This document shows positions 1 through 4,333 of a stretch of 4,333 nt of DNA, in pieces (the stretch's first letter is position 1; each line of letters begins with the position of its first letter). The stretch is from a virus (lineage: Duplodnaviria; Heunggongvirae; Uroviricota; Caudoviricetes), in IMG/VR virus record IMGVR_UViG_2660238126_000003, positions 1 to 4,333 of that record; one strand, given 5' to 3'. Position numbers and translations under genes: made by a program. A model generated the notes under the pieces. That model was not told the DNA's origin. It saw only the letters and a list, made by a program, of their open reading frames with translations, and ran no database searches.

Positions 1-240
1 CCAGTAAATACATCTGGGCGGTAAGCCAGGTGGCATGAACCGGCCAGGCATCGGGATAGACAAACACCTGGATCACTATCGTCATTCCTGCCAGCACTAG
101 TGCGGAAAAACGGCGCGACGAAGGCGATGGCGAAGGTGGCGAGCGACTGTAGCGTTGCTGCCGTTGGATCGCCCTGCGGGAAGAAGATATGCGGAAACAC
201 AATAACGGCCGCAGTGGCGTAAATGTAAAAGTCGAAGAAC
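1..240 (-). CDS. Fragment of an MFS-type (metabolite:H+ symporter-like) transporter; missing its 5' end at the 241 junction and running off the window start; reading frame is not continuous (see findings)
   Basis: Minus-strand translation from 239 downward gives FFDFYIYATAAVIVFPHIFFPQGDPTAATLQSLATFAIAFVA, a pattern typical of TM1-loop-TM2 of MHS-family MFS transporters (compare the WYDF..Y..A motif in ProP/ShiA/KgtP-type proteins). Downstream (1-100) a different minus frame is the hydrophobic one (RRFSALVLAGMTIVIQVFVYPDAWPVHATWLTAQMYLL). Identity of the gene is not established. Confidence 0.4.
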
Positions 241-245
241 NNAAT

Positions 246-1022
246 GGCGCGAACGTCTGGCCACTGAACACCGTTCAATTTTCTAATCACACCCAATACG
301 GCAAATGGACTGGCTGCGTGATGCCGCCCAGCCATTTAACCGAAATTGTGCAAGGCATTGCCGCCATTGATAAATTACACACCTGTGATGCCGTGTTAAG
401 TGGCTATCTGGGATCGGCGGAGCAGGGTGAACATATCCTCGGTATCGTCCGTCAGGTGAAAGCCGCGAATCCGCAGGCGAAATATTTTTGCGATCCGGTA
501 ATGGGTCATCCGGAAAAAGGCTGTATCGTTGCACCGGGTGTCGCAGAGTTTCATGTGCGGCACGGTTTGCCTGCCAGCGATATCATTGCGCCGAATCTGG
601 TTGAGCTGGAAATACTCTGTGAGCATGCGGTAAATAACGTCGAAGAAGCGGTTCTGGCAGCGCGCGAACTCATTGCGCAAGGGCCACAAATTGTGTTGGT
701 TAAACACCTGGCGCGAGCTGGCTACAGCCGTGACCGTTTTGAAATGCTGCTGGTCACCGCCGATGAAGCCTGGCATATCAGCCGTCCGCTGGTGGATTTT
801 GGTATGCGCCAGCCGGTAGGTGTTGGTGATGTGACGAGCGGTTTACTGCTGGTGAAACTGCTTCAGGGGGCAACGCTGCAGGAGGCGCTGGAACATGTGA
901 CCGCTGCAGTCTACGAAATCATGGTGACCACCAAAGCAATGCAGGAATATGAGCTGCAAGTGGTGGCTGCTCAGGATCGTATTGCCAAACCAGAACATTA
1001 CTTCAGCGCAACAAAGCTCTGA
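246..1022 (+). CDS. pdxY: Pyridoxal kinase PdxY (ribokinase superfamily), 5'-truncated; the first ~38 codons and the native start/RBS are absent
   Basis: ORF 189..1022 translation from residue 20 onward ([47 protein letters not shown]...[15 protein letters not shown] stop at 1020-1022) matches my recollection of E. coli PdxY. The first 19 residues of the track ORF (MRKHNNGRSGVNVKVEEXN) cross the nn at 241-242 and do not match PdxY. Confidence 0.9.
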
Positions 1023-1034
1023 AATATCTCATTT

Positions 1035-1058
1035 CGGCCCACAACGACCTGTGGGCCG
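1035..1058. terminator. Perfect 9-bp GC-rich hairpin (cggcccaca / acgacc loop / tgtgggccg) between the convergent pdxY and gstA; candidate bidirectional terminator or mRNA 3'-stabilising stem-loop
   Basis: Inverted repeat read directly at 1035-1043 and 1050-1058, 13 nt after the pdxY stop and 8 nt after the gstA stop. Neither side has a strong U-tract, so terminator function is uncertain. Confidence 0.4.
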
Positions 1059-1065
1059 ATGGATA

Positions 1066-1671
1066 TTACTTTAAGCCTTCCGCTGACAGCGCGTCTTGTA
1101 CTTCCGGACGTTCAGCCATACGTTGCATAAATGCTGCAATGTGCTCTAACCCTTCCAGATTCAGTTTCACCGCGTATGCCCAGCGCAGAACCGTAAACAG
1201 ATAGGCATCAGCAATTGTAAATCTTTGCCCGCAGATCCAGTGCTCATCCTTCAGTGCCTCGTTCACATATTGCAGCTTCTTCTCCAGCTGCGCGCGAACT
1301 GTCGGTTTGTACTCTTCCGGTGTATCAGGGCGAAACAGAGGTGTGAAACCTTTATGCAGCTCGGTGGCGATGTAATTCAGCCATTCGATGGTTTTATAGC
1401 GGGAAATACTGTTTACCGGTGCCAGCAACTGGCGGTCGGGGACGCTGTCGGCAAGATACTGCATAATCGCTACGCCTTCCGTCAGCAAAGTACCGTCATC
1501 CAGCAGCAATGCAGGCACCTGCCCCTTAGGGTTAACGACAAAGTAATCGTCACCGTTTTCGAGACGTTTTTTCATTAAATCCACACTGACGAGGGTAAAA
1601 TCCTTTCCGCTCTCACGCAGGGTGATATGGGAAGCGAGAGAGCAGGCACCCGGTTTGTAGAACAATTTCAT
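1066..1671 (-). CDS. gstA: Glutathione S-transferase GstA, complete (201 aa)
   Basis: Translation [44 protein letters not shown]...[12 protein letters not shown] matches my recollection of E. coli GstA. ATG at 1671-1669 is preceded by a GGAG Shine-Dalgarno (minus-strand aaaaGGAGttaccgATG); stop TAA at 1068-1066. Confidence 0.93.
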
Positions 1672-1721
1672 CGGTAACTCCTTTTGTCTGTGGTTTAAAG
1701 TATGGTAGTGCGTTGCTGAAC
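1672..1721 (-). promoter_or_regulatory. Putative gstA promoter / 5'UTR squeezed between the dtpA terminator and the gstA start
   Basis: Minus strand reads tttttttttGTTCAGCAACGCACTACCATACTTTAAACCACAGACAAAAGGAGTTACCGatg. It has only weak -35/-10-like hexamers (TTGTTC, CATACT/TTTAAA) with non-ideal spacing; the call is positional and low-confidence. Confidence 0.3.
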
Positions 1722-1754
1722 AAAAAAAAAGCCGCTAACGAAAAGTTAGCGGCT
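1722..1754 (-). terminator. Rho-independent terminator of dtpA: 10-bp stem (agccgctaac / gttagcggct), 5-nt loop, followed on the minus strand by a 9-U tract
   Basis: Read directly: plus-strand A9 (1722-1730), stem 1730-1739 and 1745-1754. On the transcribed minus strand the hairpin is immediately followed by UUUUUUUUU, 23 nt downstream of the dtpA stop. Confidence 0.8.
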
Positions 1755-1776
1755 TGTAAAAGAGTTTCCCTGAATT

Positions 1777-2970
1777 TTACGCTACAGCAGCTTTCGCCGC
1801 TTTGTCTGCAGCGTCATCCTGCGTCATACGGTGCAGTTTAGGCGCGGTCAGCAGCATCAGTACTGCAATAATGGCAGTAGCGACACCAATCTGCAAGAAT
1901 ACGCGACCATAAACTTCCAGTGACATCAGCGGGTCGGTAACGTTATCCGGCACAGCCATCATACCCGCAACATAACCACCAATCAGGTTTGCACCGGCAG
2001 TGGTCAGGAACCAGCTACCCATAATGAAGCCCATCAGACGCTGCGGAACGAGTTGTGCAACCATTGCCAGACCCAGACCAGAGATCATCAGTTCCCCGAT
2101 GCTCTGCAGGCCATAGCTTGCGACCAGCCAGCTTACAGACACGATACCAGCGTCAGACGCGAATTTCGCACCCAGCGGCAGAATCAGGAACGCACCAGAA
2201 CACATCACCATGCCGATTGCAAACTTGGTTGGCATCGGCAGGGTATCGCCCATCTTGTTATAGATAGCGGCCAGAATCGGACTACCGATGATGATCCAGA
2301 ACGGGTTCAGTGCCTGATACTGCTCAGGTTCTACGGCCAGACCCAGAATGGAGTGCTCAACGTTACGAATCGCAAAGAAGTTCAGTGACGTTGGCATCTG
2401 GCTGTACAGCACGAAGAAGATAATGGCTTCGAGCATCAGGATGAAGGCAACGATCATTTTACGACGCGCAGCACCTTTCATCGCGAAGGCTTCTTTACCG
2501 AAGATAACCACGATACCGAAGGCAACAACGCCCAGCGCCATACGCGCAACTTCCTGATTGTGCAGCAGCCAGGTGGCGATAGCGATCAGTGCCACAACAC
2601 CAATAATGGTCAGCAGCAGGTTACGGTAGTTGATAGGCTCGAAGTCTGGTTTTGAACCGTACTGTTTAACCCAGCGTTGGCAGAAGGCGAAGTTAACGAT
2701 AGTGATCAGCAGGCCTACAACGCTCAACGCAAACGCAACACTCCAGCCGTATTTCGCGGCCAGCCACGGCGTAGCAATCATAGAGAAGAAAGAGCCGATG
2801 TTGACGGACATGTAGTACATGGTGAATGCACCGTCCAGACGCGGGTCGTTTTTCTCATAGCATGTAGAAAGCAGAGAAGACGGGTTAGCTTTAAACAGGC
2901 CGTTACCGACCGCAATAGCCGCCATACCCATATAAACGATACCGGCGTNGTGACCNGACNNGNNANNCNG
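1777..2970 (-). CDS. dtpA: Dipeptide/tripeptide permease DtpA (TppB/YdgR; POT/PTR2 family), 5'-truncated; about 100 N-terminal codons and the promoter are absent
   Basis: ORF 1777..2931 translation ([49 protein letters not shown]...[16 protein letters not shown]) matches my recollection of the C-terminal ~385 residues of E. coli DtpA. The codons readable through the n-containing stretch 2932-2970 are compatible with the preceding DtpA residues (..LVAWSGHDAGIVY); compatibility ends at about 2970. Confidence 0.9.
2949..2969. other. Cluster of nine ambiguity codes (n) within 21 bp at the dtpA / phage junction; low-quality base calls
   Basis: Read directly: gtNgtgaccNgacNNgNNaNNcNg, with n at 2949, 2956, 2960, 2961, 2963, 2964, 2966, 2967 and 2969. 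A second nn pair is at 241-242, at the other end of the pdxY-gstA-dtpA block. Confidence 0.95.
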
Positions 2971-3140
2971 GGGATCACGGTCATCATCGCGTTTACATCC
3001 ATATCCATAATGGCCTGCAGGCGTGTACCGCGTAGCGCACCGGACTGCGGTTTACGCAGCACAATTTCGGTGATTTCTGTTTTACCGCGCTTGATGGGGG
3101 TATCCAGTTGAATGGTCTTTTCAGTCTGCTTATCGCTCAT
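2970..3140 (-). CDS. P2 gpE-like phage tail assembly chaperone, N-terminal 57 codons only; 3'-truncated at the 2970 junction
   Basis: ATG at 3140-3138 with AGGA Shine-Dalgarno 7 nt upstream; translation [57 protein letters not shown]. Its position directly after the tube gene matches the P2 order FI-FII-E, and the sequence pattern resembles gpE-family proteins as I recall them. The remainder of track ORF 2778..3140 is out-of-frame read-through into antisense dtpA. Confidence 0.6.
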
Positions 3141-3165
3141 TTTGCTGTCCTGTCAATTGGGTTCT

Positions 3166-3183
3166 GGCGCGGTATCCCGCGCC
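3166..3183 (-). promoter_or_regulatory. GC-rich stem-loop (7-bp stem ggcgcgg/ccgcgcc, 4-nt loop) in the FII-E intergenic spacer; possible attenuator or RNA-stability element
   Basis: Inverted repeat read directly, 11 nt downstream of the FII stop and 25 nt upstream of the E start on the minus strand. No U-tract follows, so it is not a canonical intrinsic terminator. Confidence 0.35.
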
Positions 3184-3194
3184 GTTCAGATATA

Positions 3195-3710
3195 TCAGAG
3201 GCCGAGGGCGTTGCGGTGCGCTTCCATCAGGTCCACACCGTCCACAATTTCCACCATGTTGATAAGGTCCACTTCATAGAGCACCTCACCATTGATGGTC
3301 AGCTTCGCGTAGCTGTTGGTACTGGTCACTTTGGTGGTGTTGCTTTCGCCCGTCTTCCACTCGCCGGAATCCACTTCTTTGTGACGTCCACGCACGACAA
3401 GCTCCACGGCCTGCACTTCCCCGGTATCGTCACGCTGAATAGAGCCGGTAAAGCGCAGCTGGATGCCATCCACCGTGGCTTTACCCATCTGTTTAAACAG
3501 CAGCAATTCAGTACCACCAATGGAAAATTCTGTGTCCAGCGCACTGTCATCAAGCCCCAGATCCACATCCACCGCACCCGGCATTCCGCCGCCGCGATAC
3601 TTCTCATATTTGCGGGTAAATTTCGGCAGCGTCAGCGACTCAACGATCCCCTGCCAGTTGTTCCCGTCGTTAAACAGGTTCAGGTGTTTTAATTTGCGTG
3701 GTAATGCCAT
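3195..3710 (-). CDS. P2 gpFII-like phage major tail tube protein, complete (171 aa)
   Basis: Translation MALPRKLKHLNLFNDGNNWQGIVESLTLPKFTRKYEKYRGGGMPGAVDVDLGLDD...MEAHRNALGL resembles P2 FII as I recall it. ATG at 3710-3708 with GGGGA Shine-Dalgarno; it starts 10 nt after the FI stop, the tight packing typical of phage structural operons. Confidence 0.85.
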   Translation of the reverse strand: MALPRKLKHLNLFNDGNNWQGIVESLTLPKFTRKYEKYRGGGMPGAVDVDLGLDDSALDTEFSIGGTELLLFKQMGKATVDGIQLRFTGSIQRDDTGEVQAVELVVRGRHKEVDSGEWKTGESNTTKVTSTNSYAKLTINGEVLYEVDLINMVEIVDGVDLMEAHRNALGL

Positions 3711-3719
3711 GTTGTCCCC

Positions 3720-4244
3720 TTACGCGCTGACCTGGCTGGCGAAATTCACCAGGTACTGATCGGTGATGCGCTGACGCAGCATCAGGTTTTCAAGTGGCGG
3801 CACTGGCGTGTAGTCGTAGTCGATGGTGAGTTTTCCGGCTTTCAGCGTGTCTTTGTCGTTCACCGACTCATCCAGCCAGCAATCACCACCAATGAGATAG
3901 CCCTGACTGACCAGGCTGCGCATTTTGGCGCGGATACCTTCGATAATGTCGCGGGCCAGCGACGGGTTAAGCGGTTTATCCACCGCCCACATGTGTGCTT
4001 CTGCCATCGTGTCCATCAGCACCTGCGCCGTGCGGGTGTAGTTTTCGAAGGCAAAGAGCGGGTCATCACTCAGGCAGCGGGAACCCCAGAAGCGGAAACC
4101 GTCTTTACGCACAAGCGTGGTGACGTCGTTCTGGTTCAGCAGACCTGCATCGGTTGCCGGGTCCTGCAGATCCCAGAACACATCTGCAGAAATTCCGGTG
4201 ATGCCTTCCCGTGCAGTGATATCAGTGCGCTGAAACGGGATACG
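3720..4244 (-). CDS. P2 gpFI-like contractile tail sheath protein, C-terminal portion; upstream continuation is interrupted by in-frame stops
   Basis: Translation ...[62 protein letters not shown]...[41 protein letters not shown] closely resembles the C-terminal region of P2 FI as I recall it. The track ORF start at 4181 is an internal GTG (the Val of ..SADVFWDLQ), not the true start. The frame stays open to 4244 and then meets in-frame stops at 4245-4247 and 4281-4283. Confidence 0.8.
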
Positions 4245-4333
4245 TCAGGGGCATTCAGGATGACCACCACCTTTATGGGGTTACAGGGGAGCCAGTCGCC
4301 TCTCCCCGGTTATTACCTCGATCACCTGGCCTG

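Follow-up and report, generated by a model that had tools for sequence, protein, structure and literature searches.

In Escherichia coli, pyridoxal kinase 2, a member of the ribokinase/PfkB superfamily, is encoded by pdxY within the tyrS-pdxY operon. At the native locus 58 nt separate the end of tyrS from the start of pdxY; tyrS lay directly upstream of pdxY in all native loci examined, and the order tyrS-pdxY-gstA-dtpA was found in 12/12 other contigs carrying the same GstA or DtpA products. The DNA described here contains pdxY codons 30-287 in identical form, followed by gstA and then dtpA in the native order as well, but its pdxY reading frame starts with 19 codons of antisense yhjE in place of the first 29 codons of the native gene.

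Two kinds of described system resemble this arrangement. Real truncations produced by insertion sequences (IS) or recombination likewise remove the 5' end of a gene at a sharply defined breakpoint marked by microhomology of a few nucleotides, whereas here no IS, transposon end, duplication or repeat was present at the junction, and the neighbouring fragment was 136 nt long and itself joined to a third unrelated fragment. Chimeric contigs of draft bacterial assemblies show the same mid-gene joining of unrelated single-copy loci, unique to one draft, with the same read-sized foreign pieces at their ends and ambiguity codes clustered at the joins. The window differs from such contigs in no essential way; four apparently false joins within 4.3 kb are unusual, and so is the column-by-column placement of ambiguous bases at one of these joins.

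Composition of the window and its source contig

The window, by which we mean the whole 4,333-nt stretch analysed, was recognised by exact-sequence look-up of the product of its 277-aa ORF as the entire contig CCBV01000741.1 of draft assembly GCA_000936365.1. This is contig number 741 of a fragmented draft, and a literature search found no paper for CCBV01 or GCA_000936365. Segments of the window were resolved by BLAST against 5,426 complete E. coli genomes and then by direct alignment to five reference loci (L001-L005). Results showed that the window is a mosaic of five mutually unrelated E. coli segments with four joins (junctions A-D), and that each of the five segments is 99.9-100% identical to ordinary E. 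coli sequence. The features are as follows.

1-112, minus strand: internal fragment of a DoxX family gene (about codons 104-140), corresponding to L003 2501-2612
112/113: junction A, blunt DoxX-yhjE join with no N and no microhomology (column-by-column alignment)
113-248, minus strand: fragment of yhjE (MFS transporter), corresponding to L001 2501-2636
246-248: junction B, GGC common to the yhjE and pdxY parents (per-column comparison)
246-2959: pdxY-gstA-dtpA locus, reference L002
1066-1671, minus strand: gstA, intact, in its native position beside pdxY
1777-2959, minus strand: 3' part of dtpA; window 2959 is L002 6714, and the dtpA CDS is L002 5532-7034
2956-2969: junction C, 14-nt ambiguous zone leading from dtpA to prophage (per-column table)
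2970-4201, minus strand: P2-like prophage tail genes (tail assembly, tube, sheath), corresponding to L004 2501-3732
2970-3140, minus strand: tail assembly gene, 5' 57 codons
3195-3710, minus strand: tail tube gene, intact, with Pfam Phage_tube on record for its product
3720-4201, minus strand: tail sheath gene, C-terminal part, with Pfam Phage_sheath_1C on record for its product
4201/4202: junction D, blunt sheath-tssG join in mid-ORF of the sheath gene, with no N and no microhomology
4202-4333, plus strand: internal fragment of tssG, corresponding to L005 2501-2632

All of the window sequence was accounted for by ordinary genes. According to the annotated reference loci, 8/8 internal segment ends lie in mid-ORF, and every one of the four joins interrupts both of the genes that flank it. 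Three of the pieces are read-sized, at 112 nt (DoxX), 133-136 nt (yhjE) and 132 nt (tssG). The window holds 11 ambiguous bases, namely an nn pair at 241-242 and nine n between 2949 and 2969, and all of them lie within 21 nt of junction B or junction C.

Sequence 100% identical to the DoxX piece was found in 61 E. coli plasmid records and in no chromosome; the piece was confined to plasmids, occurring in 64 plasmid records that belong to 62/5,426 genomes. It maps inside the parent DoxX CDS (L003 2394-2921) and translates in frame, and it is a part of the chimera that has no connection with pdxY. ETEC occurs in the names of several strains bearing the plasmid DoxX gene, a hint that the isolate behind the contig was ETEC-like.

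At the other end of the window, the tssG fragment, which derives from a baseplate gene of type VI secretion, was 100% identical to its reference and lies inside the tssG CDS (L005 2268-3350). The prophage segment 2970-4201 was 100% identical to L004. A separate P2-like prophage remnant was seen in a Logan assembly (L013 2952-5462), in which a ThsB_TIR (Thoeris-like) gene stands by a truncated portal gene and a C-terminal fragment of the sheath gene; it looks like a defence-gene hotspot or a deletion variant, unrelated to the junction in the window.

The pdxY-gstA-dtpA piece makes up the core of the window. The initial 320 nt of dtpA (about 106 codons) are absent. Across window 246-2955, the sole true base difference from the dtpA locus of strain M8 was at 2627 (T vs C), and it is an ordinary SNP within dtpA. 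Between the start region of gstA and the stop codon of dtpA, at 1728-1752, a run of A is followed by a GC-rich hairpin (gccgctaac...gttagcggc) that has the appearance of dtpA's native intrinsic terminator.

The truncated pdxY and junction B

An intact PdxY of this type would be about 287 aa long, with the 29 N-terminal residues in place, and its gene would have its own RBS directly downstream of tyrS. In the window, homology to PdxY begins at codon 30. The first-pass annotation of this sequence had placed the start of homology at about nt 246; alignment showed it to start exactly there, and window 246-1022 on the plus strand was 100% identical to native pdxY over codons 30-287 and the stop codon at 1022. 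The same annotation had estimated that about 38 codons were missing, and this figure needs correction: the native gene spans L002 3914-4777, window 246 corresponds to L002 4001, and the N-terminal loss is accordingly 29 codons (87 nt), together with the RBS and the upstream tyrS. Its statement that the window contains no tyrS was borne out; the gene that directly precedes pdxY in native loci is nowhere in the window. The break in homology is deterministic, and a chance effect need not be considered.

On the other side of the break, the opposite strand had been described as an MFS-like segment whose own N-terminus was lost. This segment is yhjE. Positions 113-248 encode on the minus strand residues 32-76 of YhjE (translation AIXFFDFYIYATAAV...), the 31 N-terminal codons being absent. 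The parent CDS lies on the minus strand of the reference at L001 1407-2729, and the only mismatches between the piece and L001 were the two n. The picture of two 5'-truncated genes abutting each other thus held in part: both N-termini are indeed missing, but the yhjE side is a 136-nt fragment that is interrupted at both of its ends, the other end being the junction at 112/113.

The junction had further been placed exactly at the nn pair, and this turned out not to be so. Native yhjE has TC at 241-242 and the native sequence upstream of pdxY has GT; after the two ambiguous bases, identity to yhjE resumes in register (243-248, AATGGC) and continues to 248. The breakpoint of junction B falls within the GGC at 246-248 and can be drawn anywhere from 245/246 to 248/249. 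The nn pair is therefore two ambiguous calls inside a yhjE-derived stretch, and is neither a spacer nor the breakpoint. We considered and rejected the nn as a gap spacer, because the register of yhjE is preserved across it. The scenario in which correction of the n positions would reveal tyrS upstream of 246, and hence no junction at all, is excluded; what lies upstream is yhjE sequence in register with nn read as TC.

The ORF at 189-1022 on the plus strand, which gives the 277-aa product, consists of 19 antisense-yhjE codons, one of them X, that run in frame into PdxY residues 30-287; the first-pass annotation had called this ORF a chimeric read-through. It owes its existence solely to the antisense strand of yhjE, which by chance is open and enters pdxY codon 30 in the right frame. 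Its Pfam matches, Phos_pyr_kin and PfkB, coincided with the matches of native PdxY apart from a displacement by 10 residues, and CCBV01000741.1, from which the window comes, was the single contig on which the exact 277-aa product turned up. What the window has of pdxY is ordinary E. coli sequence, and its failure to form an intact PdxY is due only to the broken contig; a kinase annotation is unwarranted for the 277-aa ORF.

Whether the best matches of 1-240 and 246-1022 are adjacent in any genome had been proposed as a check on this junction. The yhjE and pdxY sides occurred together in one place in 0/5,426 complete E. coli genomes. The DoxX and yhjE pieces likewise occurred together in 0/5,426, and no genome among them had a single location covering 80% or more of 1-240; the largest single-place match among them was 246-2959, equal to 63% of the window. 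Within single complete genomes the pieces are widely separated: NZ_CP025849.1 has yhjE at 1.68 Mb but tssG at 0.44 Mb, and NZ_CP012376.1 has pdxY at 1.81 Mb but tssG at 0.26 Mb. Exact-pattern scans were run for junctions A, B and D in collections that evidently do not hold the source assembly: the patterns of junction A and of junction B (any base being allowed at nn) gave no match in 185,579 GTDB species-representative genomes and JGI metagenomes, and that of junction D gave no match in viral contigs. An independent assembly spanning the yhjE/pdxY junction, which had been named as one observation that would make the rearrangement real, was thus absent from the complete genomes, representative genomes and metagenomes searched.

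Ambiguous bases at junctions B and C

The ambiguous bases were most informative at junction C. Within the 14-nt zone, N stood in 8/8 columns where the dtpA and phage parents differ, and bases were called in 6/6 columns where they agree; 8 N placed at random in 14 columns would give this exact pattern 1 time in 3003. Outside 2956-2969, the disagreeing columns were cleanly called, as dtpA leftward and as phage rightward. Read from the sequence, this zone has the hallmark of a consensus drawn from two sequences in conflict. Such a consensus would mean that the underlying data contained both an unbroken continuation of dtpA and an unbroken continuation of the phage. One isolated N at 2949, where both parents have C, has no explanation under this model and may reflect either poor base quality or a SNP of the strain. 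At junction B the model explains the nn pair in part, not fully: of the five columns of disagreement in 241-245, two hold N and the other three, 243-245, carry the yhjE base. When reads are lacking, N's that trace parental disagreement are a useful reference-based sign of false joins.

This pattern also bears on how the contig was put together. The first-pass annotation had favoured a concatenation or misassembly artefact. The misassembly part was upheld by the origin of the window as one small contig of a fragmented draft, by the four unrelated joins, by the absence of the tested joins from the other assemblies searched and by the N's at junction C; concatenation through N spacers was not. 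Under the latter explanation, leftover contigs or reads would have been concatenated, deliberately or automatically, into a pseudo-contig with N spacers, and the presence of N's at 2/4 joins agrees with it. Spacer N's would stand between segments and carry no positional information, which is not what was found: the nn lies inside the yhjE piece in the exact register of the native TC, junctions A and D have no N, and at junction C called bases shared by the dtpA and phage parents stand in among the N's. We therefore regard this explanation as very improbable.

A narrower version of the artefact reading is a laboratory chimera, in which blunt-end ligation or amplification during library preparation made the fragments and the assembler simply reproduced them. 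The perfectly blunt junctions A and D, free of microhomology and of N, would suit such an origin, as would the short pieces, which at 112-136 nt have the size of reads or fragments. It fits less well that ligation chimeras are rare reads and are normally outvoted by correct ones, that junction C resembles a conflict consensus rather than a clean ligation, and that the DoxX-yhjE-pdxY stack needs two independent chimeras. On balance a laboratory origin is possible but rather unlikely, and a misjoin made during assembly or finishing remains the preferred explanation.

Misassembly against real rearrangement

The yhjE/pdxY junction showed what is expected of a misjoin. Its two sides are non-adjacent in independent assemblies, further unrelated joins are present in the same low-quality contig (five segments, four joins), and the ambiguity reflects two conflicting sequences at junction C and partly at junction B. 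From these comparisons of sequence, the junction at 246-248 is very probably a false join that arose during assembly or finishing of a highly fragmented draft, of low quality, from one E. coli isolate. The truncated pdxY and the 277-aa fusion ORF are almost certainly assembly artefacts, a strong inference that follows from the yhjE/pdxY junction being one of four false joins in the contig.

The contig may have been built as follows. Its core would be a genuine 2.7-kb pdxY-gstA-dtpA piece that ended inside pdxY and inside dtpA. The pdxY end would have been extended first with a yhjE piece of read size (about 133 nt), next with the likewise read-sized plasmid DoxX piece (112 nt), and the dtpA end with a 1.2-kb prophage piece and the read-sized tssG piece (132 nt); N's would have been left where the consensus spanned conflicting sequences. 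Candidates for the responsible step are chimeric reads extending the contig ends, a spurious merge of overlapping ends, and scaffolding or gap-closing. The actual chromosome most likely carries an unbroken pdxY with tyrS before it, and we infer that the intact genes are present elsewhere in the same isolate.

The opposite possibility is a real patchwork locus in the isolate, formed by end-joining-like illegitimate recombination of plasmid, chromosomal and prophage fragments, with pdxY, yhjE and dtpA destroyed. The genes pdxY, yhjE and dtpA are non-essential in E. coli, so that viability does not speak against a real disruption, and the dispensability of the disrupted genes even agrees with one; the 3-nt microhomology GGC at junction B and the existence of natural dtpA null alleles in other strains are further points in its favour. 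Such a locus would nevertheless require four joins in 4.3 kb between fragments of a plasmid, three chromosomal loci and a prophage, with three of the fragments merely 112-136 nt long, and E. coli is not known to build patchworks of this kind by any pathway. Neither mobile-element ends nor repeats are present to account for it: a search at the joins found no IS ends, transposon ends, target-site duplication or att-like repeats, a repeat search of the window gave chance-level repeats of 12-30 nt only, none of them associated with a junction, and the terminal repeats, duplication or att repeats that would mark transposition or site-specific recombination were thus missing from the window. An IS- or repeat-mediated join was accordingly rejected, no such element lying at any junction. 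Furthermore, the tested joins were absent from every other assembly searched, and the ambiguity codes at the joins imply that both unbroken parental sequences were in the data. A real rearrangement is the least probable of the explanations considered and can hardly be credited, and false joining during assembly or finishing is retained.

The biology of the locus is ordinary, and the value of the analysis is one of data hygiene. The 277-aa chimeric 'PdxY' is already a called gene in a public protein collection, in which the truncated DtpA and tail-sheath products of CCBV01000741.1 are found too and should also be treated as artefacts. Products of this sort can be mistaken for pseudogenes, for gene fusions or for evidence of rearrangement, and the contig merits a misassembly flag.

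Null alleles of dtpA were observed in several unrelated public assemblies (L019-L024, about 2653-3001, in the 5' part of dtpA). Four of them (L020, L021, L023 and L024) carry dtpA W107* (TGG to TAG), L022 has a 1-nt deletion in dtpA, and L019 has a 106-nt dtpA deletion between GGTCTGGTC direct repeats. The downstream ORF that remains in all of these alleles is 384 aa long and identical to that of the window; the product is the same only because each upstream disruption exposes the same next ATG. The dtpA breakpoint of the window lies in codon 107, at or near the position of the natural null alleles; a link between them was considered, and their closeness was judged to be a coincidence.
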